A stretch of DNA of 64,000 bases from Fistulifera solaris (Eukaryota), in NCBI GenBank assembly GCA_030295235.1, contig AP026137.1, positions 434,001-498,000 on the forward strand, written 5' to 3'. Positions 21,165-48,268 of this stretch are shown in pieces. A program made the translations under genes and the position numbers. Under the pieces are notes generated by a model that did no database searches, was not told the DNA's origin, and saw only the letters and a list, made by a program, of their open reading frames with translations. Position 1 is the first letter of the stretch; each line of letters starts with the position of its first letter.

Positions 21165-22253
21165 ATGAAGTGTACGCATCCGCTCTATTCCGCGCTTCTA
21201 ATAGCTTTAATAAGGATCACATCAGCTGAAACAATACGCGGGGGGAGTCACTGTGGAAGAGGGGAGCATTTTAGAACATGACCGATCGCGGCTGTCGCGA
21301 ATACTGAAACTGTTTCATAAGCAGTCGCGAAGAGCAATGCAGGGAAAAGAAGACTATGATCCTGTGTTTGATCAGGAATACGAAAAGCGGCAAGCAAATT
21401 TAGATCCGTCGTTATGGTACTTCCCGAAATTTATCCCCGTATTTCAGATGAATCCTCCAACAGAGTCTCCGGCCCCTTCCACGCAAGGGCCTACTCTAAT
21501 AAGCGCTACGAATCCTCCTACAACATCGACGGGAGGAGGTGTAACTCCTGCTCCGACGTCTCCGACGAATAGTTTTACGAGTGCGCCGACTCCGCTTCCG
21601 ACGGCGCCCTCCTTCGCGACGCCATCACCGACGGCTCCTGCTCCTCCCACTATTTCGCCCAAACCAACACTCACGAACGCTCCTTCTGCCGTGGGCGTAC
21701 CGATACCGAGCACTCCGCCGTTATTGACGAGTCCTCCGACCATTGGTGGAGGATTTGGGACCCTGCACCCGGGGTGACGGCTACACCGACCTTTGGCCTC
21801 GGCACGCCGGCTCCGACCATGGGTTCTGCCGTTCTTACCAGTGCTCCGACATTTCCTTCGTTTGCGGCAACGACTTTAGCTCCTACGATAGCGAGCTCCC
21901 TATCTTCGACGACCGCTGGATCCATGAGTGCGGTACGACTGTCGTCCATGTCGCCAGTAGTGTCTTCGTTTCCGAGTACGGTTCCGGCGTATTCGAGTGC
22001 GCCCGTGTCTTCCTTGTCTCCGACACCGCCGTCAACGAGCGATGAACCTACGATGGGTTTTAGTAGTTTGGAGCCCAGTCAATCGCTGTTACCCACGTTA
22101 GACGACTCGTCGGAGGATGCTTCACAGCGATCAGAGGCAATCTATTCCGAGTCATTTCTTCTAGGGCAAAAGTCGTACTTGAAAGAGATGAAAATGGAGG
22201 AGTTTTGGTCCACGCTATTTCGACGGAAAGAGGATCCTGTGGAATCTCCATAA
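21165..22253 (+). CDS. Secreted Pro/Thr/Ser-rich protein (array gene A)
   Basis: ATG 21165 gives the signal peptide MKCTHPLYSALLIALIRITSA. G-run frameshifts near 21245 and 21772. RIL site, then PT/PS mucin-like repeats. Confidence 0.7.
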
Positions 22254-22821
22254 CGAGTTGCACGGAGATAGAATAAGACTCGGAGGATGTCTAGTTTTGC
22301 TGCTACAGATATAAACACAATCAGAATGAAATTATGTGCTATTGGCTACGGGCTCAAGCTTGCAGAGAGGCGGTGCGCCTTGCCACGTGGTCGCTCATCC
22401 TATACACTCGTCAAACCAAAATTGTAATGTTTATTAGATGTTCACGATGTCTGTGAGGACATTGAAATATTAGGTTCTTATCTATACCTGGTAGTGGGTT
22501 TATGGTTCGCCTTGAATGTCCTGTGATCTCCTTTTAGCTTGAGTCTTTGCAAAGAGCGCTCCCATTTTTCATAACCTTAGCAATTAGCAACTGCCATTGA
22601 AAACACACCCTACTTTTTACTATCAAATCAAACATGGCCGACCGGTATTTCGTTGTGTACATCAACGGAACAAAAATTTTGAAAATAACCGCTGAGTACT
22701 GTGCTATCCATTCTACCGGAGTGCCGATTTCCATAATATTTCATAGTATATGTTGAGAAGTACAATATTTTGTCACGTGCCCGCCAAATGAGGTGACCAC
22801 TTTTTCGAAGCAAAACAAAAA

Positions 22822-25222
22822 ATGTTGGCATCAAAACGAAGCATTATAAATAATAATGGAGTTGTTACCATGAGAAAGGCGCTCACGGTATGCAACATGC
22901 TGCCGATATACCTGAAGCGGCTGTTGCTTCTTCTGATACCAATTCTATGGATAATATGCGATGAAAACGGGTTTGAGCGTGCGCGGACGGCTTTCACAAG
23001 CATATTCATTCCAATCCACACAAAAACAGGTCGGAGCAACGATAAAAGAGTCAAGGATGCTGATAGAATAAGAGCAAGACGGACAAGAGAGGAGATGTAC
23101 TGGCCGGATTTTGGAAAGAATTTCATTCAAAGTTCGCCCTTCGCACACGATGAGCCAACTCTGAGTCCTAGTCGAGAGAAAGATCCATCCGCTGTCCCGG
23201 CATCGCCGCAAATGCTAGTAAAGAAAGAGTACGAAGATATTCCCGTTTTCTCGTCTTCTTCGGTCGGTCTATCCAAAATTGGAAAAACATTATTCGAGAA
23301 AGACAATGGAGCGGAGGAGGCAAACATCGACCGTGATTCAAATGGAGCCAAAGTAGACATGCTGCCATCTCAGAATACGAATGACCAGTTCACGGCCACC
23401 CCAACACTTGTCATATCTACTTTGATTTCCCCGACTCCCCTAAAGGATGCGGCTTACAAAGAGCCATCAAGTCCTATGAAAAATTCAAATTGGAAACGGT
23501 ATTGACATCGTTGTTTCAGCCTAGAGATAGCACAGACCAGTGGGCAAGTGTGAAGCAACTATCAGACGAGACAAACACAGCTGTCGGAAATAGCCCATCA
23601 GGTATTCCGAATCCAGAGCTTCCGCCATCTCGTCCTGCGGTATCAAATCTTGTGGATAAAGTCATCAGCTCCACAACTCAAAAATACTTTCGCTCAGAGT
23701 CTCCACATCTACCGGTATCATACAAAGCATCTTCTTCAAAGAAGGCAAACGCTTCCCAAAGAAAGGGATTGGGGAAAGCGCAGGCCTCAGGAAAATCATA
23801 TAAATTGACAGGAAAGTCGAAAGCGCCGTCTTCTCAGGAACATTTCGACTCAAAAGGAAAAGGGAAAGCATCTTACGGAAAAGCCCAAAACTCGAAAGGG
23901 AAGGGAAAAGCATCCTATGGAAAATCAAATGGAAAATCAAATGGAAAAGGAAAATCGTCTAAGGGAAAGGGGAAAGGGTCAGAAAGCGAATCGTCTAAAG
24001 GAAAGGGGAAAGGATCAGGAAGCAAATCATCCGCTTCAGGAAAGAAATCTTCCAAATCGGGCAAAAAATCATCGAAAAAGAGCAAACAAAAACAAAGGCA
24101 CCAGCTGCGAGCAATGTACCTAGCGTTATGCCGACTATTACAGGTGCTCCGACAATTACCGCGGGGCCGACGGGTGCACCTACGTCTAGTGTGTCGCCCT
24201 CGATATCGCCCAGACCAACAGCGACAATATTGAGCGAATCTCCAAGCGCGAGCGTAATCAACGACTCGCCTTCTTCGTTACCGACGAGCATAGACCAGAC
24301 TGCTGTCCCGACTATAGTGCCGACTGCGAATCCAACTGCAGGCATAATAAGCACTCCTTCGCCGACTTTAGGATCGACCATCAGTTCCTTTCCGACGAAA
24401 TTTCCCACTGCCCTCCCAACTGCCACGCCTATTATCGGTTCTCCAGAACCAGCAGCTGTGCCGTCTGTTGCCCCTTCAATTGGTTCGCCGGAGCCTTCTC
24501 CTCTAGAAAGTGAGGGCCCCACGTCCACTCCAAGTGCTTCTAGCCTAGCACCTAGCCGTGCACCGGCTTTCATCGCTAGTAGCACTCCCAGTCTGACTGA
24601 AAGTATTACTCCTAGCCAGACTTTGAGTATTGCTCCGTCATCTGCGCCGACTACTATATTCCCATCCGATACACCGAGCAATGGATCTGAATTGCCGACA
24701 TTATCGCCTTCTACACCATGGCCATCGGATGAACCTAGCTTTACACCAACAATAGATGAATCCGGCTCTCCGAGCAGTTTACCGAGTGGTCAGCCAACTA
24801 TACGGCCTTCGCCGTTTCCTTCACAGAGGCCCTCGACGGGACCTAGTATTGAACCGTCTCTCGAGCCGACCTCGCAACCGAGCGAAGGGCCCAGTAGGCG
24901 GCCATCCGTCGAACCTAGTCTTTCTCCTACCTCTTCTCCATCGACACGGCCTAGCATCGACCCAACAAGTCAGCCAGTGGTAGCCCGAATTGGCGAAGAA
25001 GAATTTGATGCGGATTCGGACACTCAGGCTGCCGAACAGGAATCAGGGTTTCTAGGAGGCGCAACTATCATTCTTCATGAAACTACAGGACACGAACAGA
25101 CGTATGAGACTCAGTCGGATAAAAGCCTAGATCCCGCTGGCACGACACAAGTTATTCAGAGACAGAGTCAAGGAGCCAGACCATGGAAGATAATGAGAAA
25201 CAACAAAACGGGAGCTGGTTGA
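22822..25222 (+). CDS. Secreted/anchored Lys-rich (KGKG, KSSK) + PTS-rich silaffin-like protein (array gene B)
   Basis: N-terminal hydrophobic segment, KGKGKASYGK x2, SGKKSSKSGKKSSKKSK, then PSxxPT repeats. Three ORFs joined by frameshifts near 23490 and 24090. Confidence 0.7.
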
Positions 25223-26057: not shown

Positions 26058-27150
26058 ATGGCAATCTCTCCTAGAATGAAAAGAACACTTCTGATCTGCG
26101 TCCGCCGATCGTGGCTTCTGTTTTTCCCAACTTTGTGGGTCGTGTGCAGTAAAAACGGGTTTGAGTGGGTTCGTAAGGAGTTTGTGCATCATACATCTGG
26201 GCCAAATTTTAAAGAAGCAACTCAAAGTCAACATGACATACGGATTCACACGGGAAAATACAGTGGGAGACTCAATGAAGTATCCGAAAATGGATTTGAC
26301 CAAAGTTCATGGCGTTTTCTCAATTCATTGTCTTGGTCATCTCGCGCGGACGCACCGAGTCCTGAAAAAACGCCTTCAAAGTTCAAGACCGAACGTCGTT
26401 TGTCGAATATATTCTACCGCTTGTATGACCTAACAAATCATCAGAATACAGCAAAGTCTGTAAAGCCTGCCGGAAAGACAAAAACGTCGTCTTCGAAGAA
26501 ATCAAGCAGCCCGACAAAGAAAGCGAAGCCACTCTCTGAAACAAAACCCAATAAAAAGAAACAAAAAGATACGAGCAGCGACGACGACTCTACTAGTAAA
26601 AAAGGAAAGGGAAAAAAGGGATCGAAAAGAGTAAATCAACAAGGAACTCACCTGTGAGTGCACCTTCTCGGAGCGACAGACCTCCTGTAAGAGCTCCCGT
26701 CTTCGTATGGAGGCCAATCGGTCGTGAACCCTCTCCGCCACGTCCTCCAGCTCCAGTTCGAGCCCCGGTTCAAGCTCCAGTTCGGGTTCCGACTTCGACG
26801 CCAGCTCCAACTCCAACGATGACCACAGAACCTGGAAGTCCGCCGCCGGTAATTGAGAATGAGAGTTCGTCTCCGTCGCCCACCACGGAAACTCAAATTC
26901 CGACAATGAATACAAGTCTGGGCTCTTCTGATTTTCCCACTTCACAAATAATTGATCAGTCCTCACCTCGACCATCATCATCCAATCAGCCGAGCGCATT
27001 ATCAAGTTTGGAATCAACTATGGGATCCAGCAATGAGGCAAGTGACGTGCCTACTTTCTTTCTAGCGATCCACCATCTTTGTTACAATCATTCTCTCCAA
27101 CACGAGTCGGCAATCCGGAACGTCTGAATGAAAACCGTAGGAATGGGTAG
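26058..27150 (+). CDS. Shorter paralog of gene B: Lys-rich + PTS-rich secreted protein (array gene C)
   Basis: N-terminus LLFFPTLWVVCSKNGFEWVR resembles gene B LLLIPILWIICDENGFERAR. Contains an RRL site, KKSSSPTKK/KKGKGKKGSK, APVR repeats and a PTS tail. Frameshifts near 26630 and 27060. Confidence 0.65.
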
Positions 27151-28627
27151 AAGAAGTTTGCTTTCCGCCTATTTAATTCGCGAAAATTTGGATAAGAAAT
27201 GGGCATATGCACTGTGCACTGCTCAAAAGCGTACTGTAGTGGAGTAAGTTTTGCATGCAAAGCGAAGAAACTTCATCAATTGGCATCACTGGTATGGTCC
27301 AACATGCGGACATTGCTACCAGACTCTGCTGAATAATTTCTCACTAGATAATAACTATTATGATAAGGATTGAAGAATGGGTGATCAATGCAAACCGATC
27401 TCCATGATTATAACAACCTTATATTTGGAAAGTGATAGTAATAGACTTCTTGTTACCTGGTACCAGCATTATCAGAGACTATGTCGATGGCCGCGGACAA
27501 TCATGACTGTTGCTGACGCCTGTGATGACGGCGGAAAAGTGATTCGATCGAAAACCTTACTCCCGACACGACATTGATGGTACGACATCAGACATCATCT
27601 GTCATTCCTTCGTGGATCTATAAGTATCGGTCCGTTCGATTATGAGAGGAACTAAGTAGATGAAACATTAAATAAAATTAACTCCAAGAGAAGTACGGTA
27701 GCAAGATGGCTTTCATCGCGGATGCAAGAACTTAAAATTCTTGCAGAGAAGAAAACGAATTGACTCATGACTCAATCCAGTCATGACAAAAGGTCGCCTT
27801 CACTATGGGGCTATAGTAAATCAACGTGTAAAATAATGATCTCCTCGAAGGCTTTTTCACGCAACAAATAATGCAATAATTCATCTCAAAGAATGCGGAT
27901 GGCTAATACAATGCTTTCGACAGCTTTACATTTTTATTTTTGTTCGAGCTTTGTGTTGTCAATGCAATCCTTATCGGTGTTTGGAAGTCGAGCTTACACT
28001 TGAGCCTATAGTAAAAAATGGAAAAATCATTCTGAGAAGCTTTTCCACGCCTAAAAAAATGTAATGAAGCATTTCAAGTGAAATTATCAGCTAAATCATA
28101 ATCTTCTATTGTACATGTTTTCATTTATTCATAGAGCTAGATCCTAGACTATGTGTTAGCATTTTTGGTGTCCATCGTTTTCCTCATTTTGACTCAAACC
28201 GAGTCGTGCCATGGTGCCGTAAACTAACACTTTAGTCTATACTACATTAGGAAGTACACATTCGTGCCATAGAAATTCAATTCTCCACATTGGCAACAAA
28301 GCACGTTTGTGATAAAAAGATCGCGACCGAGACGTGCGTTATTTATTTTGCCAAATGCCTTTGATGTCGATGAAAACACATCTTCTCGTATTTTTTGCAA
28401 TCACTCATTAGAGAATTACAGTCGCAAAGTCTTTCATCTTTTCTGTTGGATCTTGATGGAATAGCTTGGTAGCTGCTGTTATTCGAATGAGTGTTTTGAA
28501 GTTATGAATCAACAAAGAAAAAAACAAGATTGCAAGTAAGGCAACGAAGAGACAGCGGATATTATCCCGAAAATGGATTCAGTATAGCTTTTCGTCGTTA
28601 ATACATAGCAACGGAGCTGTTTTCGTT

Positions 28628-29441
28628 TTGCTGAAGCCCTGGCTTGTTCTCCGTGTATTTACACACGGCCTTCTAAACTTCCCACGTGGCTACAGAACAA
28701 CAATCCACCCAACTGGAACAAGCGGCGAGAGCCTTACTGCAAAAGTCGGGTACTTTAACGGAGGTGGAGACTTGATTCAAAAGTGGCACAAACTGTTGTC
28801 CACATTGGATACCGGGCGGCTGGAATTGGCCGTCGAACGCAAGCAGGACTTGTACCAATCGTTACAAGACGATCCACGCATCGATAGTGCATCGCTTCGT
28901 TGTTTCTTACAGGAGTACAATCGTTCTCATTCGAGTGGATCCCAAGGCTTGGCGATTTGGAAGCGTGGAATCTAGTTTGGATTGGTGATACGGAACTATC
29001 TCCGAAGATAGAACGGAAATTATGGAAGGATCACAAGTGGCCATGGAGGCCTTGTAACGACTCCTCCTCGATCAGTGGGGATTTACCATGCAACCCAATC
29101 TGATATCGCATTCGTTGCCTGTTTGCTGCATCTCGAATGTATTTTTCACGGCGACAATAGTCAGGATATACGATCGTTGCATCAAGCATTTCTAATGATG
29201 AAATATGTGAAGAAATTACTCGGCATGTTTTGGAAAACGAGACGAACGATGTTGCTTGGTACCTGGTAACGGTACTCTATACGTTTCTTCCGGGGATGCA
29301 AATCAGTTCAATCTTGACAATCCTACGTTTTACGCTATAATAAAGGTTGATGTGATTCTCGGAAGCGATGGTACTTTTAACGCCTGTAGCAAAACCATCA
29401 ACTTAGTTCAGAGCAACTTGATATTTAGGAGCAACTTATAG
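28628..29441 (+). pseudogene. Fragmented coding-like remnant, family unresolved
   Basis: Four short consecutive + strand ORFs with globular-looking composition. The YAIIKVDVILGSDG segment is faintly ATP-grasp/TTL-like. No intact gene can be built. Confidence 0.25.
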
Positions 29442-30342
29442 ATTTTGACATTAATAGACTTAGGGCATAAAGCAAACCCAGTTATTAGGCGAAAAGAATG
29501 AAGTCATCGCCATCGTCAAGGAAAAAGGAAAGGTTTCTAATTGCAGGCCAACGGATACAGAGATCGTTTTGTACTTAAGCCATAATGGTTTTCAACGAAG
29601 CGATACTGCCCGTTAGAACATGAAGATAAAATATACTATCATCGTAATTTGTCATGATAAAAAAAGCGAAGAATCGTCCTAGACAAAATAGTACAAGGGA
29701 ACAGGTTTTGATGGACTTCTCTATGTGGAATAAAGTAGTGGGAGATGACCCGCCAAGAGTCATTTACACTCTTTTTCCTATACAAAATCGAAATTTGTCG
29801 ATTCGATCTTTGAAATCCTTCCCCCCCCCCACCCCCATCCCCCATGCCAAAACGAAAAGATCACGGAGACGGCTTGGATGCGGGAGTTTGTCGGGACGAC
29901 TCGGGACTCGGGACAAAAGAGCTCGGGAGTCAAATTCTACCGCATTAGGACGTCTTCTCTCCGCACCCGGATAAGGATAAGGCACAAGAAAGGAACACGT
30001 AGACACGGAGACACTGGACACTAAACCACGAAGTAGTGGAGAAATATCCCAATATTTTATTACTACAGGGCAGAAAGGCGCGCCATCGAACGCTGGAAAG
30101 ACTATTGCCCATAGGCCCAAGTCACATTCTTTCCCTATTGTTTTCAGCAATGATTTTCCGTGGGTCCTGGTTCCTAGTCGTAAATCTCGGCTTCGGGCTT
30201 CCATCTTAGTACTTTGTGACGTTTTTCCGGAGCAGGCTCACTTTCTCGTCCACTTCAGTCATCCGGTCACCTTTTCTCGAACACTTTTTCAAAACGATGA
30301 AATTAAATCCATCACAAGAGCACCAACGACGAAAACGAAAAG

Positions 30343-33300
30343 ATGTTGATGGCGCTCAAAGCATCAAACGTAAAAATGATTTGCCTTTTGATACAACTAT
30401 GGTGGATCTTGATGGTGTCATCAAGTGCTGCTCTTGAGAACACAGATACGACAGGGGCCTCGATGCCAATGATTCCACAAGCACCAGGAGACGTCGGCAG
30501 AGAGTCTCATTCCGACGAGCCGACACGACGAAAACAAGCCATCGGTGTTGTGTACGCGGATCAAGTATCAAGCCCAGTAAATTATCCATCTTTACAGGAT
30601 TTTCCGGCTATAACATCTCGACTATTCAGCCCCGATGAACTTGACATTACGGATGCATCCCCTAAATTGACGACCCGTCAACGAGCACTATCTGAACGTT
30701 TCCTTAAAGGTAAAACCACACCGAAAACAAATGGGAAAAACAAGAATAATACGGGGAAAGGAAAACCACCGTCTCCTGGAAAGTCGAACCAACCCCCAAA
30801 AAAGACGAAGAATACCAATGGTAAAGGAGATAAAAAATCAGATAGTAAATCGAAAAAGTCGGACAGCATGTCGAAAAAGTCAGACAAGAAGAATAAGGGG
30901 AAGGATGATGGAAAAATGGGAGCCAAATCACCAGTTCGTTCGCCAGTTCGATCACCGGTAAGGTCGCCAGTTCGATCCCCTGTGCGCTCACCGGCAGGCT
31001 CACCAGTAAGGTCACCCATCCGTGCACCAACCATTTCGCTTCCTGAGCGAGTCCCAACATTCATAAAGAGATTCATTGAATTTGTACCGACAGTGCTTGA
31101 AGAGCTTCCAACATTCAGGAACGATCCTCAAACTAGGGCACCGGTAATCGAGGACAGAGTACCCACTTCGAAGCCGTCAAGTTCACCAAGCGAGTCACCT
31201 AGTCGAGCCCCGATAAAAAGACCATCTTCTGCTCCGTCTCGAGAGCCCTCGCCTGAACCGAGCGCTCGGCCTTCGGCTTCACCAATAGCACAGCCGAGTG
31301 CTGCACCTTCAGGTCAACCTTCGCCTTCACCCACTGACAACCCGACTGCAGCACCAAGCGAGGTGCCAACAAATGGACCCACTAATGTGCCTAGCATGAA
31401 TCCGACGTTAGCACCGAGTACTGCGCCGACTGTCCAACCGAGTCGTCAGCCAACAACCGGTCCTTCGCGAAAGCCGAGCTCTGAGCCGACAATCGAGCCG
31501 TCCAGCTCTCCCACCGCGCTGCCTAGTGGTACGCCGACAGAGAAGCCTTCTCAGTTGCCGACACAAAAGCCGTCGCCCGGACCGAGTGTTGGACCTTCTG
31601 CTGTGCCCACCAGAGAGCCAAGTTCTTTTCCAACTACTCTGCCATCAAGTTCACCGACCGTGGGCCCAACTGTCGCACCAAGTATGAATCCGACCAGAAC
31701 GCCAAGCAATGAGCCTAGTATGAAGCCGTCATCGTCTCCGACAGAAGTTCCATCGCTTTCGCCAAGCAATCAACCTACGAAAGGACCTTCCAGGGAACCG
31801 TCAGGTGTACCAACCGCGGAACCATCCAGTTCGCCAACGTCGCGCCCGAGTGCTGTACCAACTAGTCCCCCATCGACAAGCCCGACTGACAATCCAACGG
31901 AAGCACCAAGTAGGAATCCCACAAATGTGCCAAGTAGTGGGCCTACAATGACCCCAACATCGACACCGACAAAAGTCCCATCTGGTTCTCCGAGCCTTCA
32001 GCCCACAACAAGTCCCTCGCGTGAACCTTCGGCGGCGCCTTCTCCCGGTCCTTCTGCTACGCCCACGTCAAAACCGAGTGTTACGCCATCGGTTCGTCCT
32101 TCAGCTGCACCGACTAACGCCCCGTCTCTTGTGCCGAGTATACTTCCTACTCCTGTAAGAAGTGCGGTGCCGAGTTCAGATCCCACGGTGTCGCCGAGCA
32201 TCGTTCCGTCTGCTTCGCCGAGTCGTCAACCCACGATAGGCCCTTCGATGGAACCCAGCGTTGAACCGACTGTGAAGGCGTCTAACACACCCAGTTTATC
32301 GCCTAGTAGTCTTCCAACTACAAAACCTTCTTCGTCTCCGTCGCAAGAGCCGTCACCAGGACCGAGCATTAGTCCTTCAGCTTCGCCGACGACGAATCCG
32401 AGTGATGTACCGACAAGTCCTCCCTCAACGTCACCGACGGATAGCCCAACCATTATGCCAAGTTCAAGACCGACATCTGGGCCAACCAATGTGCCAAGCA
32501 AGAGTCCGACATCGAAACCGAGCGCTGTGCCGACTAATCAACCGAGTCAGCAGCCAACCAGAGGCCCTTCGATAGAGCCCAGCACAGGGCCGACAACTCA
32601 GCCATCCAGCTCTCCAACCATGTCACCTACTAGCGTTCCAACTCCGCAGCCATCACGCTTACCCTCTCGAGAGCCAACGGTAGAGCCTTCGGCGGGTCCT
32701 ACTGTCGAGCCCTCTGCTTCGCCAACAGCAAGTCCAAGTGGTGTGCCTACTGCACGACCCTCAACTACACCAACGGATGGACCGACCGTTGCACCGAGTA
32801 TGGGGCCGACCAATTCCCCAAGTAATGAGCCATCAGAAAAGCCGTCATCGTCGCCAACCGCAGGCCCAACTCTTTCCCCAAGCGATCAGCCCACAAAAGG
32901 GCCATCCAGAGAACCTTCGACTAATCCAACAACGGTGCCTTCAGCTACACCAACGACAAAGCCTAGCGCTGTTCCAACTTCTCGACCATCGACTAACCCG
33001 ACTGATAGTCCAACGGTTACACCTAGTAGCGGACCCACTACAACTCCGACATCAGCACCGACAATCGTCCCATCCGGGACGCCAAGCCGCCAGCCCACAA
33101 ATAGTCCCTCGCGTGAACCTTCGGCGGCGCCTTCTCCTGGTCCTTCTGCTTCGCCGACATCAAGACCGAGTGTTACGCCTTCGGTTCGGCCGTCCGTTGA
33201 ACCGACTCACACCCCATCTCTTGTACCGAGTATATTGCCAACTCCTGTAAGAAGTGCCGTGCCCAGTTTGGATCCGACCGTGTCGCCGAGCATCGTTCCG

Positions 33301-36300: not shown

Positions 36301-36492
36301 CGAATTGTCGAGTCAGTTGGTAGCAGTAAGCTGCGATCACGACGAGGAAACAGAATGCCCAATTTAGCTCAATTGTCAAAGACGTTGTCGGGGAAAGAGG
36401 GGATAGTGTTGATACTCAAGCAGAAAAATGGAATCTCTCTGGATTACCGAACAAGATCACACCTCCTTGTCGCGAAGGGAACAGGCGTCTAA
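30343..36492 (+). CDS. Giant (about 2000 aa) secreted silaffin/mucin-like protein (array gene D)
   Basis: Signal peptide, RAL and RFL sites (30682, 30697), K-rich block (KSDSKSKKSDSMSKKSDKK), (SPVR)n, linker PTFIKRFIEFVPTVLEELPT and about 1500 aa of PSxxPT. After a stop at 35704-35706 and two small deletions, the same frame resumes as (EAPTKSPS)n to 36492. Confidence 0.8.
33050..35580 (+). repeat. 996-bp (332-codon) near-identical tandem repeat, about 2.5 copies, inside gene D
   Basis: Near-identical shadow ORFs are offset by exactly 996 (33569/34565; 33623/34619). Boundaries approximate. Confidence 0.9.
35808..36276 (+). repeat. 24-bp minisatellite encoding (EAPT[K/R]SPS), about 19 copies
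   Basis: GAGGCTCCGACAAAATCCCCTTCT-type units. Confidence 0.9.
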
Positions 36493-37291: not shown

Positions 37292-37910
37292 CCGTGCTTG
37301 ATTTACGCAATGTAAAAACATTCAACTTCGTTTTGAAACATCATCATGGGGTAAGTCTCGAGCATTTCTCTGTTGTTTTTCCTTCCTTTGAATTAGTACG
37401 GTAAGGTTAGAAATATAGTTTCAAGTTTCAAGACACTACAATGACCTATTGACGACTGATGACTGATGACCGGGCGATGATGATTCTGGTCACTTCAATG
37501 ACATTTGAGTGTACTTCATAACAAGTTTGTTCGTGCATGTAAATAACCATTTCTCTTTTGAGTACACAGAATTAGATACTGTTGGTGCCCTGCCTGTTTG
37601 CATTGGTTGGGAATTAAAGGTGAACAACGGCTAATCCCCACTTCTTAGCTTCTTGGCTTTCCCTATTCCCTATAGAATTCGTGGTCGTAGAACTCATTTT
37701 TTGCTTCTTGCTTCTTGGGTCTGTGTACAAGTAAGCTATACTAATATGAAAAAACGAACTTTTGTGTACTAAGTTTAATTCTGTTCCCTGTTTCCGATGT
37801 CTGTCGGGATGATTTACGATTCCGGAATCAGGTCACCTTTTACGGACGCGTTTGCGAGGAAATAAATATTTTCGCAACAACCAAAGAAAACATGAAGCAT
37901 CAATTGGACC

Positions 37911-40900
37911 ATGATAATGGGCCACAAGCCAGGAAAAATTCAATTTACATGTCTTTTGATAGCAACAATGTGGATCTTGACCGGGTCGTCCAGTCCTACG
38001 GAAAGCGGTGGTTCGTCAACTCTGACATTAATTACACAGTCGACCGACAGCCTCGGCATTGAGAATCAATCCGTCAAATTGTCAAGTCGACAGAGATTCA
38101 CAAGCGGGGTGCACGCAAATCAACAATCGATTCCAGTAGCTGATCTTCCTTTTATTGACGCTCTTCCTCTCCCGACTCAACAACCGTCGCTTGCTATTGA
38201 GCTGAACCGAATCAGAACGGTACCAATGTTGACAACCAGTCAACGAACACTGACGGATGGTTTCTTAAAAGGGAAAAAGGGAAACGAAATCAAGTTCTAG
38301 CGGCAAGAAAAACAAGTCTACAGGAAAAGGGAAGACAAACAACAAAAAGGGCAAAGGAGAGCAGTATTCAAATAGTAAATCAAGCAAAAAGAGTAAAAGC
38401 TCAACGGGTAAAGGAAAGAATGGAGGGAAATCTCCAGTACGCTCGCCAGTTCGGGGCTCCGGTTCGGTCTCCAGTTCGCTCGCCTGTTCGTGCACCAGTT
38501 CGTTCGCCAGTAAGCCCTCCAACCCGAGTGTTTCAAGATAAAGCGCCAACATTTATTAAACGATTAATAGAGTTCGTGCCTACAGTGCTTGAGGAGCTTC
38601 CAACTTTGAGGACTCGGCGAGAAACAAGGGCCCCGGTAATTGAAGACAGAACACCTACTTCAAAGCCGTCAAGCTCCCCGAGCGAGTCACCCAGTCGCTC
38701 GCCGATAAAAGACCTTCTTCGGCTCCGTCTCGAGAGCCCTCGCCTGAACCGAGCGCTCGTCCTTCGGCTTCACCAATAGTACGGCCAAGTGCTGCACCTA
38801 CAAGTCAACCTTCGCCTTCACCGACTGACAGCCCGACTATATCACCGAGCGACAAACCAACGAGTAGACCAACCATTGTGCCTACCACGAATCCGACCTC
38901 GGGGAAACCGAGTACTGCGCCCGACTGATCGACCGAGTCGTCAACCAACGAGCCAGCCATCTAGCTCTCCTATTGTGTCACCTAGTAGAACGCCAACGCA
39001 GAGCCTTCTCAGTCGCCGTCACAAAAGCCGTCTCCAGGACCGAGTGTTGGACCTCTGCTGTGCCCACCAAAGAGCCAAGTTCTGTTCCAACGTCACGACC
39101 GTCAATTTTACCAACCGATGGACCCACTGTCGTGCCAAGCCAGAATCCGTCCAGAATACCAAGCAATGAGCCAAGTATAGAACCGTCAGTGATGCCGACA
39201 GAAGTTCCCTCACTACCGCCGAGTAGTCAGCCAACAATTGGACCTTCAGCGAAAACCTTCGAATGCTCCCTCAACGAATCCTTCCCCGTCGCCCTACGTC
39301 CAATCCAAGTGCTGTTCCCACTACACCGCCATCGAGAAGCCCGACTGACAATCCGACGGTTTCACCAAGTAGGGATCCCACCATGGTGCCAAGCAGTGGA
39401 CCCACCAGCGACTCCGACATCATCACCAAGCTCGGTCCCAATTGGTTTGCCGAGCCATGAGCCCACAACTGTTCCCTCTCGTGAACCTTCCGTGGCTCCT
39501 TCTCGGTCCTTCTGTTTCGCCCCACGTCAAGACCGAGTGCTGAACCCACTACTTCACCATCGTCTTAGCCTACAAAAACTCCTTCAGCAGTACCGACTAT
39601 TCAACCAACACCTGTGCAAAGTGCGGTGCCCAGTTCAGATCCCACCATTTCGCTGTCACCGACGTCTTCACCAAGTGACAAGTTATTTTCGAACCGATGT
39701 GACATCTGATGTGACATCCTGATTCCGGTTCATTGTTTCCTCTCTGTAACTTCCGGATCGTACATTTTGTGTCTGAGTCCACCTGTTATGGACTGACTAT
39801 GGTGTCTTTTGTAGGGAATAGCTGATGAGTCATCGCGGACGTTTCTGGCCACAAAAGCAGCTTTTCCGAGTGATGTTGGATGCACACCTTTACATTACAA
39901 TATTTACTTTTAACTCTTTTTCATTGATTATCATCTTTGTTTATAGGGTCTGAAGGTAATTAGCAGTTGTACTACGCATACAACTGATAGAAAGCTAGTA
40001 AATAGGGTGATTGAGGTCATCCGCCGCTCTCGTGCCATTCAAAGGCATCAACCAGTCGTAAGCCTGCTTTGTCTTGACCGCCATTGTCGGCTTTCAACGA
40101 CATCCTTTCGTTTCAGAGCGCTTTCTTGTCTATATTGAGAACGTGTTCTTTGAAAACGATTGTCACCAAGCTTGGCAGCCCATCTGTATCGCCGAGCTAC
40201 AATCCCACAATTGTTCCATCGGGAGAAGCTTGGCGGTGCCGAGTCATGAACCTTCTGCTTCTAGCCCAGCATTGGAACTAGCGCATTACCCACGAACTTC
40301 CCGTCGACATCCCCCGGCGAAAACACCATCAGAAGTGCCGAGTCTCCAGCCAACACCGTTAAAAAGTGCGGCTTCCAGTTCAGATCCGACCGTTTAGCAG
40401 TCGCCGACATCGCCGCGCCAGCACTGTCCCTTCCGTATCGCCGAGCCACAATCCCACGATTGTTCCGTCGGGAGAAGCTTCGATGGCACCGAGTCTCGAA
40501 CCCTCTGCAACTATAAGACCGAGCGCTTCACCCTCTACTTCACCATCGCTTTCACCTACAAAGAACCCCTCCGAGGTACCGAGTATCCAACCAACTCCTG
40601 TAGGAAGTGGGGTACCAAGTTCAGAGCCGACCTTGTCGGTGTTGCCGACAGCATCACAAAGTGCAATCCCATCTGTATCGCCGAGCCGAAACCCCACAGA
40701 CGCGTCCATCGGAAGGTGGTTCGATGGAACCAAGTTTTGAACCTTCTGTTTCCGTCCAGCACAGGACCGAGCGCTACACCCACTACGTCACCATCGACTT
40801 CCCGGCTACCCCGTCAGCATTGCCGAGTATACAACCAACACCTGTGAGCACTGGGATCCCAAGCTTGAACCCGACCTCGTCGCTGTTATCAAGCATTGGT

Positions 40901-43059
40901 CCATCTGTGACACCGAGCCATCAACCAACGTCAGCTCCTTCGATGGGACCAAGCGGTGAGCCGACTATTGCTGAGTCCGGATCTCCGAGCCTCTCTCCAA
41001 GCAAACCCCCATCCGCAAAACCATCTATTGCCCCGTCCACGAGCCGTCTCCCGGACCGAGCATTGGTCCTTCGCCATCACCGACGTCACAGCCGACTGAT
41101 GGACCCACCACGCCGTCCATCGACTTTGCCAACAGATAATCCAACGGTAATACCAAGTGCAAGACCAACAAGTGGACCGACAACTGTACCCAGCGTCAAT
41201 CCGACATCAAAACCGAGCGTTGTGCCGATAGATGCACCGAGTCGTCAACCCACAACAAGTCCTTCGAGAGAGCCTATTGCCGAGCCGACAATCCAGCCGT
41301 CTAGCTCTCCTACCGTGTCACCGAGTAGCAATCCATCTCAGCAGACATCAAAGCGCGCCGTCGCAAGAGCCATCACCAGAGCCTAGCGCTGGACCAACTT
41401 CTTCGCCCACATCGAAACCGAGTTCTGTACCCACTATTCCACCGTCAAGTTCACCGACCGATGGGCCGACGAATGTACCGAGTGTGGATCCAACCGGTGT
41501 ACCAAGTGAAGAGCCAAGTGTGAAGCCGTCTTCTTCTCCAACAGAAGGCCCGTCGCTTTCGCCGAGCCGTCAGCCAACAATTGGACCATCGATGGAACCT
41601 ACGGTTGTACCGTCAGAGGGTCCCTCGTTTTCGCCAACGTCAGAGCCGAGCACTGCACCCACTTCGTCCATCAATTGCCCCGACTGAGAATCCGACAAGT
41701 GCACCGAGTTTGAATCCGACAAAGGTACCAAGTACTGGACCCACGGCAGCCAACCGCGTTACCTACAAAAGTCCCATCCAGTTCTCCGAGCAATCAACCA
41801 TCTGTGGGTCCATCGCAAGTAGCTTCGATGGCACCCAGTAGCGGACCCTCGAAGACGCCCACAACAAATCCGAAGCTGCACCGACTACCCTAGCATCAAC
41901 TTCACCGACACTGAACCCCACGACAGTGCCGAGTCTGCAACCATCCACTGAGACATCATCACCGAGCATCGTTCCGTCTGCTCCGGCCGAGCAATCAACC
42001 GACGTCAACCCCTTCGATGAGGCCCAGCGGTGAGCCGACTATATCGGGGTCGAGCTCTCCTAGCGTCTCTCCAAGTAGACTTCCAACTGCAAACCCATCT
42101 ATTGTCCCGTCCACGAGGGCCTTCTCCCGAACCGAGCATTGGTCCTTCGCCATCACCGACGTCACAGCCGACTGATGGACCCACAAGTCTTCCATCGACG
42201 CTTCCGACAGATAACCCGACGGTAACACCAAGTGCGAAACCGACGAGTGGACCAACGGATGTACCCAGCACGAATATGACAGCGAAACCGAAGGCCACGC
42301 CGACAGATCAACCAAGTCGTCAGCCAACAACGGGCCCTTCACCGAAACCAAGTAACGAGCCTACAATTCAGCCATCTCGGCTCTCCGACGGTGTCGCCTA
42401 CAAGCGTTCGACGCACCAGCCAACAATTGTGCCCTCACGAGCCTTCGCCAGGACCAAGCGCTGAACCCACGACTTACATCGCGACCGAGTGCTATCCCAA
42501 CTACACGACCATCGATTGCTCCGACACATGGACCGACTGTTGCACCGGTATGAAGCCAACAAGCGCCGTCCTCGTTTCCGACCGAAGGTCCAACCGTTTC
42601 TCCGAGCAATCAACCCACAAAAGGACCTTCAGCGAACCAAGCGCTGAGCCAACTACTAAGCCTTCTAGCCCTCCAAGCTTCTCACCCACTAGTCTGCCGA
42701 CGGCGATGCCTTCGCAAGCACCATCGCGAGAACCATCCCAAGGGCCTAGTCGTGTACCTTCGATTAAGCCAACGTCGAGACCAAGCAGTCGGCCATCTCT
42801 TTCGCCGACCGACAGCCCAACCGTTGCACCAAGTACGAATCCTACCAGTGCTCCTAGCCGTGCACCAAGCTCAAAGCCGTCGGCGGCTCCAAGCAGAAGA
42901 CCGTCCTCGGCGCCTTCTGAGGCACCGGCGAGATCTCCTTCTGAGGCTCCGACAAAATCCCCGTCTGAGGCTCCATCCGTCGAACCAACTTTGAAACCGA
43001 GTAATTCACCGATCGCGAGGCGTACGCTTCTTGGAAGAAGAGACCGATTTAGAAGATGA
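37911..43059 (+). pseudogene. Paralog of gene D (array gene E), heavily frameshifted and interrupted by a 492-bp insertion
   Basis: Signal peptide, RTLTDGFLKGK, K-rich block, SPVR repeats, PTFIKRLIEFVPTVLEELPT, PSxxPT repeats and a short EAPTKSPS tail. Many frameshifts. Non-repetitive insert at 39675-40166. Confidence 0.7.
39675..40166. mobile_element. Small non-autonomous TIR element inserted in gene E
   Basis: Ends GTGACAAGTTATTTTC and GAAAACGATTGTCAC are imperfect inverted repeats. Flanked by CAA/CAA; alternatively by the 8-bp direct repeat TCACCAAG at 39668-39675 and 40163-40170. The interior lacks the surrounding PS repeat. Confidence 0.65.
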
Positions 43060-44237
43060 GTCGTTCGAAGGGAGTAAAACTCGATCCTCATTCGATAAAC
43101 AAAAGCATTTCTCAGCGGCGTTGCCGGGAGAAATAGAGAGTAACGTCATTTCTTTTAATGAAGAAAGGAATATCTCTGGATTCCCGCTTGATGACACAAC
43201 TCCGAGTCGCTGAAAGGAACAAACATTTAGCCCGATCACTTGATATAATAAGAAGGCTAAAGAAGGAGACTGTTAGAGTCGACACAACGGTGATGTTAAA
43301 CAGTCAATAAGTCAGTCTTTCGGCGGTCATTTGTCATGACATTTCCCTCCCGACGGTTCGCCCCTGTTGCAGATGCATAAAGATAATTTTTCGACTCAAA
43401 GGCAACAAAAAGTCGGTATGAATGGATAATGTAACGCGTCAACAGCAAATGGATGTTTTGCAGCAAAACACACAACTTAGACCTACATGGCAAAAAGTTC
43501 GGATGTGTGACATCTTGGTGACATCATCATCTTCTGTCGTCTGTCGTCTGTCGTAAACCCTGTCCTTAATGAATGCTCAAATATATGCATCTTGAAGATC
43601 ATGAAAGAAGCATGAACTATGAACTGCATAATGTTGTTTTCATAAATTTTTATAATAAATAACTGTATAGTCTATTGACCTCTAATTTAAACCATATTCA
43701 ATTGCAGGACCTACGACCTACCAGGTTCTGGCACTGTCGTAGTCGTTAATACTTCATAGATTATCTTGCTCGCCCCTCGCTCTAAACCCTAAAGAGAGGC
43801 AATTAGAAATTGGAAAAACAGATTTGCCTTCTTTGTATTGTGAAAAGCATTGAGTCATGTAATGAATGATGAGTGATGAGTGATAAAAGGAGAAGAGTGA
43901 CGAGTGAACCAGATACTCTAGTGATTTTAAAATTGAAACTCTAGTTGCAAGTTGCAACGCTACAAGCTACAACGCTCCGTCATACAAGGTACTCCAAGCA
44001 GAATGCAAGCTCCAAGCTCTTTCTTCTGTCTACAACAACGTACTGGCATCTTGGATCTTGCTTGTTGGTTTAAAATGTTATTTGTTATTTCCTGGTCTAT
44101 AGTAAGGTTATTCTGGTACGGTACCCTATACCTAATGCCACTCAGATCATAAGGCTCACGATTCACGACTCATGACTCAGTGGGCTGACAATAGAAATAA
44201 AATAATGTCAAAACAAACTATGACCTTCGGGCCTTGG

Positions 44238-44316
44238 GAAACGACGTTAAAATTCTGCCTCGCCGTAGGATCGACGTAGTAATTTGTACCGAGAGGCAGA
44301 ATTTTAACGTCCTTTC
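44238..44316. repeat. 79-bp palindromic element, copy 2
   Basis: Arms are identical to those at 37213-37291; the spacer differs at a few positions. Confidence 0.85.
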
Positions 44317-45139: not shown

Positions 45140-48100
45140 ATGGAGTTTCAAATACCAAGGAAATTATTTGTTGTTTGTTTCTTAACATTATTCTGGGTCA
45201 ATGTTGGGTCATCTAGTTCGACGGAGAAGAGTGATGCGTCAACATACGAAATGACATCGATTTCATCAATTGACGGAAATCTCGCCACAGAGGCTCATTT
45301 CGATGGACTTTCAAGTCAAGAGAAGATCACAGGCTCAAAGCTTGAGGATCTAGCGTTGGATCTGGTGGACGAGATTACTGGATTGTGGAGTTTTCAGCGC
45401 TCAACCCCGCAGCTATATGAGGAAACAGCTCAAACATCGACACGTAGTCACGGAGCGCTCGCCAATCGCTTTCTTAAAGGTAAAAACAAAGCAAAGTCGA
45501 ACAAAACCGGAAAGAATAACAAGTCAACGGGCAAGGGGATACCCCATCGCCGGGAAAAGCAAAGCAACCCACCAAGAAGCCAAAGGAAACTAAAGGGAAA
45601 GGGGACAAAAGTCAGACAAAAAGCCGTCGAATTCAAAAGACAACGGCAAAAAGGAAACAAAAAGAACAATACTCCAAAGGCCCCAGTTCCCTCGCCAACC
45701 CGTAGACCACCAGTTAAAGCCCCCACTATCGTAAAAGGCTTACTTGGTTTAGTGCCTACAGTCATCCGGGAACTACCAACCGTCAGAAGCGCGCCAAAAA
45801 TAACGTCGGCTCCGGTAATTGAAAATCGAGTGCCTACAAGCTCCCCAAGCCTTGCGCCAATTCCACTTCCAACCTCAAGAATTTCTCCGGCACCGTCGAG
45901 GGAGCCCTCACAGAGGCCCAGCGCTCGTCCGTCTGCTTCACCTCAATCACGACCAAGTTCGACACCCAGTGGCCAGCCAACAAACTCACCGACGGGGGAA
46001 CCGACCATGGCACCGAGTACGAAACCATCAAATTCACCAAGCAGTCTGCCTACTATGAACCCAACTACGCGTCCAACGGCTTCTCCAAGCCTGCTAGCGT
46101 CAGATCCGCCAAGCGATTCGCCAACGACAGGTCAATCGATGGAAGAAAGCATGGAACCAACAATACAAGAATCCGTCTTGACAAACCCGACAGAAAAGCC
46201 ATCTCAATTACCATCTCGCGTTCCTAGCCCGGGACAAACCATAAGCCCTTCCTCATCACCCACATCAAGACCGAGCGTACAGCCATCTCAGGAACCGTCG
46301 ATTTTGCCGACAGAGGACCCTACTGGGGCACAAAATGCGACCCCGTCAAATTCGCCAACTGAGCTACCCAGCAGATTCCTCTCTGTTCAACCGAGTAGTC
46401 ACCCAACAATGGTCCCATCACAAGAACCATCTCTAGACCCTATCATTGGTCCGTCTGCATTGCCAACTTTGATGCCCAGCGCTAATCCTACAATCAAGCC
46501 ATCAATCATACCGTCTAAAAATCCGAGTAAAGTACCAAGTGTGGAACCAACAAGATTGCCTACTGATCAGCCTACTATGAACCCAACCAAGACACCGAGC
46601 ACAGTCCCAACAGTTCAACCAAGTCGTCAGCCAACAACAGGTCCATCAAGAGAGCCTTCACCAAAGCCTAGCGTTGGACCAACTTCTTCGCCCACATCAA
46701 CACCGAGCTCAGCGCCCACGACTCGACCGTCAAGTTCACCTACCGATGGGCCAACAGTTGCGCCGAGTATGAAGCCTTCTAGCGCCCCAAGCGATAAGCC
46801 GAGCGCTAAACCGACATCGGCTCCGACGGAAGGTCCGACAGTTTCGCCGAGCAGTCAACCCACAAGTGGGCCTTCGCGCGAACCATCGGCTGCGCCGAGC
46901 AGCCAGCCCACGAAAGGACCTTCGAGGGAACCATCGAGTGCTCCAACGACAGTTCCTTCCGTCACGCCAACGTCACGACCGAGTGCTGTTCCTACTTCCC
47001 GACCATCGACTAACCCGACAGAGAATCCGACCGTTGCACCTAGCATGAATCCCACGAAGGAACCGTCTAGTGAACCCACGATTATTCCGACATCGGCGCC
47101 GACAATAGTCCCATCCGGAACGCCGAGCCACCTGCCCACAAATAGTCCCTCGCGTGAACCTTCGGCGGCGCCTTCTCCTGGTCCTTCTGCTTCGCCCACA
47201 TCAAGACCGAGTGTTACGCCATCGGTTCGGCCTTCCGTTGAACCGACTCACACCCCATCTCTTGTACCGAGTATATTGCCAACTCCTGTAAGAAGTGCCG
47301 TGCCCAGTTTGGATCCGACCGTGTCGCCGAGCATCATTCCGTCTGCTCCGCCGAGCCGCCAACCTACGACAAGACCAAGCGCTGCACCCACAAGTCGTCC
47401 GTCGATTTCACCGACAGATAATCCGACAGTTACACCAAGTGCGAGACCAACAAGCGGACCGACGGCTGTACCGAGCATGACTCCGACGACGAAACCAAGC
47501 GCAGTTCCGACCGTTCAACCCAGTCGTCAACCAACAACGAGCCCTTCGAAAGAGCCCAGCTCCGTGCCGACAATTCAGCCGACTAGTACTCCGACAGTGT
47601 CGCCATCAAGTGACCCGACTCAACAGCCTAGCGTGAAACCATCTGTTTCGCCCACTTCACGACCGAGTGTTGCACCCACGGCTGGACCATCGAGTGCTCC
47701 GACAGATAGGCCGACCGTCGCACCGAGTATGAAGCCTTCTAGCGCCCCAAGCGATAAGCCGAGCGCTAAACCGTCATCGGCTCCGACGGAAGGTCCGACT
47801 GTTTCACCAAGCAGTCAACCCACTAGAGCCCCGAGCAAAGACCGTCTTCGGCGCCATCTGAAGCTCCAACCAAATCCCCTTCCGAGGCTCCGACGAAAAC
47901 CCCTTCTGAGGCTCCGACGAAAACCCCTTCTGAGGCTCCGACCCGATCTCCTTCCGAGGCTCCGACGAGATCCCCTTCTGAGGCTCCGACAAAATCCCCT
48001 TCTGAGGCTCCGACGAAATCCCCTTCTGAGGCTCCGACGAGATCCCCTTCTGAGGCTCCGACCCGATCTCCTTCCGAGGCACCAACAAGATCCCCGTCGG

Positions 48101-48268
48101 AGGCTCCGACACGTTCCCCTTCGGAGGCTCCGACAAAATCCCCTTCTGAGGCTCCGACGAGATCTCCTTCTCAGGCCCCGACACGTTCCCCGTCCGAGGC
48201 TCCGACAAAATCCCCTTCGGAGGCTCCGACCCGATCTCCTTCCGAGGCTCCAACTTCTTAACCGTTGA
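45140..48268 (+). CDS. Secreted silaffin/mucin-like protein (array gene F)
   Basis: Signal peptide, RFLKGK at 45467, K-rich block, PTIVKGLLGLVPTVIRELPT and PSxxPT repeats. The 24-bp repeat tail reads as (RLRRDPLL)n in the assembled frame, or as (EAPTKSPS)n ending at 48261 if one A is restored near 47838. Confidence 0.82.
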   Translation: MEFQIPRKLFVVCFLTLFWVNVGSSSSTEKSDASTYEMTSISSIDGNLATEAHFDGLSSQEKITGSKLEDLALDLVDEITGLWSFQRSTPQLYEETAQTSTRSHGALANRFLKGKNKAKSNKTGKNNKSTGKGIPHRREKQSNPPRSQRKLKGKGTKVRQKAVEFKRQRQKGNKKNNTPKAPVPSPTRRPPVKAPTIVKGLLGLVPTVIRELPTVRSAPKITSAPVIENRVPTSSPSLAPIPLPTSRISPAPSREPSQRPSARPSASPQSRPSSTPSGQPTNSPTGEPTMAPSTKPSNSPSSLPTMNPTTRPTASPSLLASDPPSDSPTTGQSMEESMEPTIQESVLTNPTEKPSQLPSRVPSPGQTISPSSSPTSRPSVQPSQEPSILPTEDPTGAQNATPSNSPTELPSRFLSVQPSSHPTMVPSQEPSLDPIIGPSALPTLMPSANPTIKPSIIPSKNPSKVPSVEPTRLPTDQPTMNPTKTPSTVPTVQPSRQPTTGPSREPSPKPSVGPTSSPTSTPSSAPTTRPSSSPTDGPTVAPSMKPSSAPSDKPSAKPTSAPTEGPTVSPSSQPTSGPSREPSAAPSSQPTKGPSREPSSAPTTVPSVTPTSRPSAVPTSRPSTNPTENPTVAPSMNPTKEPSSEPTIIPTSAPTIVPSGTPSHLPTNSPSREPSAAPSPGPSASPTSRPSVTPSVRPSVEPTHTPSLVPSILPTPVRSAVPSLDPTVSPSIIPSAPPSRQPTTRPSAAPTSRPSISPTDNPTVTPSARPTSGPTAVPSMTPTTKPSAVPTVQPSRQPTTSPSKEPSSVPTIQPTSTPTVSPSSDPTQQPSVKPSVSPTSRPSVAPTAGPSSAPTDRPTVAPSMKPSSAPSDKPSAKPSSAPTEGPTVSPSSQPTRAPSKDRLRRHLKLQPNPLPRLRRKPLLRLRRKPLLRLRPDLLPRLRRDPLLRLRQNPLLRLRRNPLLRLRRDPLLRLRPDLLPRHQQDPRRRLRHVPLRRLRQNPLLRLRRDLLLRPRHVPRPRLRQNPLRRLRPDLLPRLQLLNR
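47859..48255 (+). repeat. 24-bp minisatellite, about 16 copies, homologous to 35808-36276
   Basis: GAGGCTCCGACGAGATCCCCTTCT-type units. Confidence 0.9.

Follow-up and report, generated by a model that had tools for sequence, protein, structure and literature searches.

Our analyses of a 64,000-nucleotide stretch of the Fistulifera solaris genome, hereafter the window (G000:C17:434001-498000; genome 51.7 Mb in 62 contigs), have identified a strict four-residue register, P-[S/T]-x-x, in the body of gene D, one of six genes (A to F) rich in proline, threonine and serine (P/T/S-rich). The cluster had been recognized in a first-pass annotation made from the sequence alone, in which the register, its main feature, was not seen. 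The genes D and F, and also E before its disruption, would on our preferred reading encode precursors of glycofibrils of the TLP-4 type, which are processed at an R-X-L (RXL) site and held at the cell exterior by a cationic head; we give this reading an even chance of being right. The anatomy of these genes, the single register, the selection on its P and S/T residues and the transcription of D are direct observations.

The tetrapeptide register of gene D and its conservation

From residue 274 of D up to the first frameshift, 377 units follow one another consecutively; P is the opening residue in 372 of them, and 370 open with P[ST]. Every break in the register is itself four residues long. 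The longest perfect run of P[ST]xx consists of 82 units, compared with at most 5 in 200 shuffled sequences. The long PSxxPT repeats that had been claimed for D, E and F are present in all three far beyond chance, the numbers of strict P[ST]xx units being 416, 194 and 168, respectively, with 17 in B and none in A and C; the latter two are as P/T/S-rich, yet have no register. The array makes up 82% of the D chain and is 67% P, T, S and G (PTSG), while D is composed of 23% P, 21% S and 13% T with one Cys. The Pfam scan of D returned PT only (PF04886, 84 bits on the D tail against a cut-off of 26).

A colinear second copy of the region is present on contig C18 at 77-88% DNA identity (cluster part G000:C18:388160-399009), and the C17-C18 comparisons are internal to this genome throughout. 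When identity was determined for each position of the 12-nucleotide (nt) unit (1027 and 2635 aligned bases), it was 0.99-1.00 at positions 1-2 of the P codon and 0.92-0.99 at positions 1-2 of the S/T codon, as against 0.57-0.69 at the third positions of these codons and 0.62-0.89 in the x-x codons. The P and S/T codons are thus fixed while third positions and the x-x codons drift, which indicates purifying selection on the first two residues of the unit only.

This pattern bears upon the possibility that the products are ordinary disordered glycoproteins of the mucin or extensin kind, whose period would stem from repeat expansion and whose chains would contribute to a floppy hydrated gel lacking any ordered glycan shell. 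As linkers, PT repeats (PF04886) are widespread, and unequal crossing-over in a sequence of 12-nt period maintains a register unaided, such exchange being indicated here by internal and neighbouring copies that are 98% alike over 0.8-1.6 kb. However, expansion alone leaves the fixed P and S/T codons unexplained while wobble positions and x-x have diverged by 10-40%, and the equally P/T/S-rich A and C have no register; hence, we consider this explanation unlikely. The internal 996-bp copies of the D array are 98% alike, and on C18 two stretches, of 1560 bp and 857 bp, are 98% alike between the genes D and E, both of which differ by ~15-20% from their C17 counterparts. Homogenization of the arrays by unequal exchange (or gene conversion) is suggested by these sequences, with assembly collapse as the alternative. 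Indels in multiples of 12 nt were discarded as proof of selection, since they are expected from unequal exchange anyway. Frame changes per kb of array number 0.4 in D and F, 4.4 in E and 3.3 in the C18 copy of E.

Relationships among the six genes

All six co-oriented genes of the first-pass annotation were located on the plus strand (Table 1). The single six-member tandem family that it had proposed does not hold, as no homology links all six outside low-complexity sequence, and tandem expansion is supported for the trio D-F only. By sequence comparison, D, E and F form one set of paralogues, B bears a weak likeness to C, and A is unrelated. A search of the genome with the linker that follows the lysine-rich block recovered D, E, F and two C18 copies only (6 scored in all, with E 0.36 for the sixth). 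The match between B and C is weak (E 1.6e-4 and 0.011), and A matches only its own C18 copy and has no paralogue. A profile of the D/E/F N-termini gave probabilities of only 0.4% against C and 0.2% against A. A match of D to C (E 1.2e-5) was rejected as a sign of kinship, for it spans a low-complexity K/SPV region and is driven by composition; C and D-F have an R-x-L-x-x-x-F look in common, and given this and the composition-driven match, C may be distantly related to the trio.

The cluster had been delimited as 21165..48268, of which the start stands; the end closes a shifted frame, the tail frame of F stopping at 48261. The 27 kb attributed to the array include the 2.36-kb dispersed repeat between C and D, which lies outside the family. 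The motifs for which D, E and F had been called the fullest versions are found in all three, but E carries a 490-bp insertion and is not intact. Hydrophobic N-terminal 15-mers occur in all six genes (mean hydropathy 1.3-2.3), hydropathy being the sole basis of the predicted signal peptides; the long basic N-regions of B and C could be signal anchors instead. In the D/E/F alignment, the W and SSS of the predicted signal peptide are invariant.

Table 1. Features of the P/T/S-rich gene cluster (positions in the window)
Feature	Position	Strand	Characteristics
Gene A	21165..22253	+	Predicted-secreted P/T/S/G-rich, ~365 amino acids (aa), without lysine block or tetrapeptide register; unrelated to B-F
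Gene B	22870..25222	+	Hydrophobic N-terminus, spacer, long K/S/G block, P/T/S region with one 17-unit P[ST]xx run
Gene C	26058..27127	+	B-like hydrophobic N-terminus, motifs RFL and RRL, K/S/T block, short P/S/T tail that lacks a register
Dispersed repeat	27508..29863		2356 bp, TG..CA ends, between C and D, outside the family
Gene D	30343..36492	+	~2050-codon precursor, fullest member; 1787-aa open frame, then tail frame
D predicted signal peptide	30343..30432	+	Hydrophobic stretch ending SSS-AA; hydropathy 2.21; helix 7-32 in model
D RAL and RFL motifs	30682..30705	+	Close a 90-residue spacer, directly before lysine block
D lysine block and SPVR repeats	30706..31025	+	25 K in 78 aa, 5 KxxK, then SPVR
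D amphipathic linker helix	31054..31116	+	Common to D, E, F only
D P-[S/T]-x-x array	31162..36279	+	~426 units, one register; 996-bp (83-unit) internal duplication; EAPT tail
D 24-bp EAPT[KR]SPS tail	35812-36272	+	Within array
Gene E	37911..43213	+	D paralogue, disrupted; 19 frame changes; R-x-L-L-E-E-E and acidic tail in shifted frame
TG..CA element	39676-40165		490 bp, inside E array; 5-bp target-site duplication CCAAG on both sides; not in C18
Gene F	45140..48261	+	Shorter paralogue, 168 strict units; RFLKGK at 45467
F divergent linker	45722-45784	+
F EAPT tail	47857-48251	+

Comparison with TLP-4 fibrils and adhesive proteins

TLP-4, which was solved from pond water with its gene and producer unidentified, is an 8-nm fibril whose sole protein is a linear tetrapeptide repeat with a rise of 12.4 angstrom per unit, each unit consisting of a dihydroxyproline with two glycans, an adjacent Ser/Thr with a third, and two unconserved residues (PMC11725842). 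The gene is likewise not identified in the cited parts of later papers (10.1101/2025.09.30.679562, PMC12956863). Diatom PT/Sxx proteins have been proposed as TLP-4 cores, with Fistulifera and Craspedostauros entries in the candidate list; one example is Nitzschia inconspicua KAG7367681.1 with 667 repeats, and a Fistulifera entry is GAX28955.1 (PMC11725842). D resembles the part of the TLP-4 structure so described in its fixed Pro, the neighbouring Ser/Thr and the two variable positions, and its conservation profile also matches. TLP-4's tetrapeptide repeat is found in D, E and F and not in A or C, with only the 17 units in B. For TLP-4 candidates, Fig. 3B of the same work requires repeats of >600 aa that occupy >50% of the chain (PMC11725842); D, with 416 strict units (~1660 of 2050 aa), and F, with 168 (~670 of 1040 aa), both exceed these limits. 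In contrast to D-F, no RXL, lysine head or amphipathic helix is described for TLP-4 in the cited parts of that paper. The earlier claim of very large secreted O-glycoprotein precursors is borne out for D-F by gene anatomy, secretion and modification being predicted. From their sequences, A, B and C appear to be smaller secreted P/T/S proteins that cannot form a TLP-4-type fibre.

On the glycofibril reading, the signal peptide would direct the chain into the endoplasmic reticulum, where the spacer would be removed at the RXL site and the lysine-rich head exposed, as in silaffins and Sin1. The first proline of each unit would be (di)hydroxylated, and this proline and the next Ser/Thr O-glycosylated, as the parallels with TLP-4, tpSil1H and the composition of diatom adhesives suggest. 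The packed glycans would stiffen the chain to a single thread, for which the TLP-4 rise predicts a length in D of ~426 x 1.24 nm = 0.53 micrometre. The cationic head and the amphipathic helix may then hold the thread on an acidic exterior (silica wall or polysaccharide), as a coat or mucilage fibre. Of 50 scored in the genome, 46 match PF13640, a family of 2-oxoglutarate oxygenases that includes prolyl hydroxylases.

Several points weigh against this reading. The PF13640 count is not specific for prolyl hydroxylases, and the P[ST]xx motif is common, mostly as the stalk of multidomain proteins. No P[ST]xx protein is demonstrated as a TLP-4 core in the cited parts of the relevant papers (PMC11725842, 10.1101/2025.09.30.679562, PMC12956863), and S/T-P-x-x is equally allowed, since the direction of the TLP-4 fibril is not established in the part of the structural work drawn on here. 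TpSil1, a valve protein of Thalassiosira, joins RXL, KXXK, PT repeats and dihydroxyproline, and this favours a role in silica (PMC5501833). The CAA, GDPH or Cys-rich units of known trail proteins (Trailins, GDPH proteins) were not found in the segments scanned, in which Pfam recognized PT only and the D array is uninterrupted. Lastly, the frameshifts beyond position 32000 lie outside the stretch that was compared with sequencing runs (13000-32000).

Among adhesives, that of Craspedostauros contains 17% dihydroxyproline, 22% Ser and 12% Thr together with giant P/T/S-rich proteins (10.1101/2023.03.06.531300). The Craspedostauros australis proteins CaTrailin4, Ca5609 and CaFAP1, as far as described there, are like D very large, secreted and P/T/S-rich, with glycosylated extended strands proposed, and the PTSG share of the D array (67%) compares with 69-78% in two of the Craspedostauros giants (10.1101/2023.03.06.531300). 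In the cited parts, the Craspedostauros proteins differ from D in having CAA domains or six-cysteine units between P/T/S blocks, whereas D contains a single Cys and lacks such units; the text of that paper makes no mention of RXL (10.1101/2023.03.06.531300). What PT repeats do in the wall and adhesive proteins of diatoms is described as little known (PMC11725842, PMC5501833).

The lysine-rich head and silaffin-type characteristics

The lysine-rich blocks claimed for D-F (16-21 K per 60 aa), with SPVR/PPVK repeats, were confirmed, as were the RXL sites, viz. RFLKGK in both D and F, with RTL..GFLKGK in E. RFLK is retained in the C18 copies of D and E and in F; on C17, the RFL of E has become GFL, with RTL kept, and its C18 copy keeps RFL. 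The conserved linker PTFIKR.IEFVPTVLEELPT is present in D, E and F as described, and its amphipathic character is supported, since the best 11-residue moment was reached by 1.3% (D), 1.7% (E) and 5.6% (F) of 2000 shuffles. In a single-sequence model of D 1-300 (mean predicted local distance difference test score 50.8), the chain is coil with four short helices, which include the RXL stretch and the linker; the helical linker belongs to this low-confidence model. For the EAPTKSPS tail, the claimed length was confirmed in D, with 19.2 copies, and in F, with 16.5, but E has only 2.5 copies.

Precursors of silaffins and Sin1 have the order signal peptide, spacer, RXL, lysine block (PMC4557024, PMC5525289), and a combination of RXL, KXXK and PT tetrapeptide repeats is found in 14 Thalassiosira silaffin-like proteins including TpSil1, a valve protein, whose form tpSil1H contains dihydroxyproline (PMC5501833). 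D-F resemble TpSil1 and the Thalassiosira pseudonana silaffin-like proteins, as these are described in the part cited, in joining a (predicted) signal peptide, RXL, clustered lysines and PT repeats in one precursor. They differ from this group in that no sequence homology was found, in the two lysine patterns considered below, and in an array of hundreds of units. TpSil1 is about 500 aa in length.

D, F and C have an RXL after the spacer, as do D and E on C18, and none follows the signal region in B; the specificity of RxL is low, as it occurs in 9 of the 10 housekeeping open reading frames (ORFs) of the window. The strict pentalysine cluster, K..K..K.{1,2}K..K (10.1101/2021.09.18.460806), was not found in the tested segments of any of the six genes, the result being less certain for F, whose lysine block is partly out of frame in the present assembly. 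The loose rule of five non-consecutive lysines in 12-14 residues (PMC5501833) fits B, D, E, F and the C18 copy of C and none of the 10 housekeeping ORFs; it also fits two trypsin-like proteases, two other predicted-secreted ORFs and histone H2A. Paired KxxK within 10 residues are present in B-F and in 0/10 housekeeping ORFs. The Brembu screen for repeated KXXK, with X being S or G and 1-6 residues between repeats (PMC5501833), selects B only, the counts of K[SG][SG]K being 4 in B, 1 or 0 in C, 1 in E and 0 in D and F. Silaffin-type sequence is also characterized by a 100-residue window with >=18% Ser and >=10% Lys. Such a window exists in B, C, D and the C18 copy of E and not in A, nor in F as assembled, the C17 segment of E being too short. 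Codons for KGKGKG give 173 matches in the genome compared with 36 for a reversed control, and among the loci examined (11 of 30 returned) a trypsin-like protease and histone H2A account for one each, with two more located upstream of an HExxH motif. Hence, the silaffin signs reported earlier are indeed present in D-F, but they are not diagnostic, given the RxL of the housekeeping ORFs and the loose lysine rule on proteases and histone.

These data allow for D-F being giant TpSil1-like silaffins, in which the lysine head would target the silica deposition vesicle and a phosphorylated, sulfated and glycosylated PT array would regulate polyamine-driven silica deposition and end up inside the wall. 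The alternative is a serious one, since the combination of RXL, KXXK and PT repeats is already in print, and it draws on the silaffin/Sin1 order of parts, on five non-adjacent lysines in the 12-14 residues after RFL in D, E and F, and on the KxxK pairs. Against this, the strict pentalysine pattern is missing from A-F, the giants fail the Brembu screen, the same type of block occurs on two trypsin-like proteases and others, and the lysine head is just 4% of the D chain; moreover, lysine-enriched regions were dispensable or insufficient for targeting in several of the cingulin constructs reported in the part of the work cited (PMC9650480). We accept the silaffin role as a tentative possibility. 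The two ideas may also be joined, in that D and F could form silica-anchored glycofibrils, with the RXL-freed lysine head in or on the wall and a TLP-4-type rod projecting from it or lying along it as a ruler, the rod length then being encoded by the gene (about 0.2 and 0.5 micrometre for F and D). Such a molecule, which we hold to be doubtful, would if real combine biosilica targeting with the orphan TLP-4 fibrils and provide a TLP-4 gene in a cultured diatom.

Other sequences with lysine blocks were noted. A trypsin-like protease (51523-53310, minus strand), 3 kb from the cluster, has RKL ahead of the enzyme domain, together with a P/T linker and a C-terminal lysine block (18 K/60 aa); from its sequence it is a candidate for RXL processing or for a wall-targeted protease, and a similar protease is present at the genomic locus L084. 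Two adjoining predicted-secreted genes (L081 and L082, C5:107510-117303) have a K/S/G block and P/T stalk, a domain and then HExxH, and are possibly wall-targeted metalloproteases; L081 fits the strict pentalysine pattern.

Transcription of gene D and assembly quality

Contigs from four sequencing runs (X1-X4) were aligned to positions 13000-32000 only, so that E and F lie outside this comparison. X1 and X3, with cover in 30/30 bins, behave as DNA. For X2 and X4 the cover is 12 and 9 bins, respectively, GT..AG introns are skipped, and X2 has a poly-T end, characteristics which show both to be RNA; they are two runs of one study, available as contigs only, from which strand and level are not readable. 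Lack of expression had been named beforehand as counter-evidence, and D is transcribed, RNA contigs of X2 and X4 spanning 30725-32000 with 0-1 differences. For A, there is RNA contig depth in the 3' bin; RNA contigs cover neither B nor C, which is not evidence against their expression.

The extra base at 21240 (A) is absent, and the missing base at 23478 (B) is supplied, in the DNA runs X1 and X3, and one-base errors at 14521 (G-alpha) and 17187 (V-ATPase) are corrected by all four runs (from 12 of the 43 indel rows of the comparison). These corrections show that the assembly contains indel errors, and as housekeeping genes are hit too, frameshifts in this genome need checking before genes are called broken. 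The one- or two-base shifts of D at ~35690 and ~35790, a site beyond the read-compared stretch, are likely assembly errors as well. A second B frameshift near 24085 is inferred. The copy of A on C18 is open for 368 aa and that of C is open through the shift at ~26625. The gene order A-D is the same on C18 and in an independent metagenome.

Genes E and F, insertions and the question of decay

The second copy of the 490-bp element inside E, with the same ends, is located at C17:1160195; in shape the element resembles a solo long terminal repeat. The one GT..AG reading seen leaves the frame shifted, and removal of the insertion by splicing was therefore rejected. The array of E has 19 frame changes on C17 and 12 in its C18 copy, yet its proline codons are still conserved (0/155 and 3/275 positions changed), which indicates either that the disruption is recent or that most small indels are errors; the many indels were thus not accepted as proof of decay, as they may be consensus errors, and the insertion is the sole firm lesion. 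No separate copy of F was found on C18, where the last gene ends like F. An R-x-L-L-E-E-E motif with acidic C-terminus closes the C17 copy of E and the C18 copy of D; other ends are found in F and in D on C17.

The lesions of E, the lack of a separate C18 copy of F and the mobile elements between the genes would fit a cluster of mostly decayed repeat DNA with unimportant products. We judge this very improbable, since D is transcribed, the frameshifts that were checked are assembly errors of a kind that affects housekeeping genes likewise, the constraint on P and S/T is strong, and both C18 and the metagenome preserve the order of A-D.

The 2356-bp repeat between C and D has a 91% copy on C1 and partial copies elsewhere, and is absent from C18 and from the metagenome contig X3; no target-site duplication was seen at its ends, and its one ORF scanned gave no Pfam match. 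An 81-bp palindromic element with 30-31-bp arms and a 19-bp loop is located upstream of E (37212-37292) and upstream of F (44238-44316), with at least 40 genomic copies at 94-100% (40 of 407 candidates scored), and looks like a very short miniature inverted-repeat transposable element. Upstream of A are a high-depth repeat at 19176-19700 (~280-465 vs ~20 in the DNA runs) and a 790-bp stretch at 20036-20823 with 35-bp terminal inverted repeats.

Homologue searches and distribution of the repeat

The earlier claim of an uncharacterized family agrees with our searches, in which head and linker had no detected homologue among proteins, metagenomes and atlas structures. Residues 1-290 of D matched 0 of 6536 candidates among proteins of 981-3122 aa, and of 8000 scored among proteins of 30-981 aa 12 matched, the 6 inspected being SPVR low-complexity. 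A linker profile searched against 1.84 billion representatives returned one vertebrate-type receptor phosphatase, matched through ten short repeats and considered spurious. The 76 pattern matches for head or linker in metagenome contigs yielded none that was confirmed, and the one match among PDB sequences was a lysine-rich ribosomal tail (E 0.003), which is no real homologue. The ESM Atlas gave no usable match for D 1-420, the best value being 0.79 for A, such blanks not being proof of absence. No published account of these genes was found in a literature search that extended to sources other than subscription papers and bioRxiv supplements.

The P[ST]xx motif was found in 1171 of 8000 scored database candidates. 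Proteins with PF04886 have the same repeat as D, but, in the best 120 matches, shorter registers, more Cys and no lysine head: none is >45% array (82% in D), all have at least 4 Cys, within the first 400 residues none reaches 15 K per 60 aa, and single-register tracts extend to 257 units at most, versus 378 in D. Within the genome, 39/55 PF04886 matches are inside the cluster (150 of 674 candidates scored). What is new here is the extreme length, the lack of a folded domain and the private amphipathic linker, the P[ST]xx repeat class and the RXL, lysine and PT-repeat combination having already been published. D, E and F form a lineage-restricted trio of P-[S/T]-x-x giants that are free of domains and carry an RXL-lysine head, two of them apparently intact on C17. 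As it is transcribed, is nearly pure repeat under selection and has a unique taggable head, D provides a clean experimental handle on the possible ordering of such arrays into glycofibrils, on the enzymes responsible for dihydroxyproline, and on a possible choice between wall and mucilage by the lysine head. This is qualified by the at least 3 other stretches of the same genome with arrays of similar size.

Of 11 other genomic stretches examined, 3 (on C3, C4 and C25) hold at least 337-469 P[ST]xx units. They are part of a second giant predicted-secreted P[ST]xx family, viz. L095 (C3:2002001-2012000), L096 (C4:1944001-1954000), L097 (C25:599001-609000) and L104 (C26), whose arrays reach 469, 425 and 337 units or more in the parts examined. 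This family has a Cys-rich N-terminal motif and GGAKLPTF repeats, with Cys modules between array blocks on C3 and C4; the N-termini seen have no lysine head, and the plan is nearer to CaTrailin4-type proteins.

Neighbouring genes and other features of the window

B is the most cingulin-like of the six genes. The cluster is flanked by eukaryotic housekeeping ORFs, among others those for G-alpha, a V-ATPase subunit, an epimerase, a trypsin, a kinase and DUF6824. At 57560-60410, a 332-bp tandem duplication and a SWIM zinc-finger ORF are present, both of which are missing from C18, and this segment resembles a remnant of a Mutator-type transposon.

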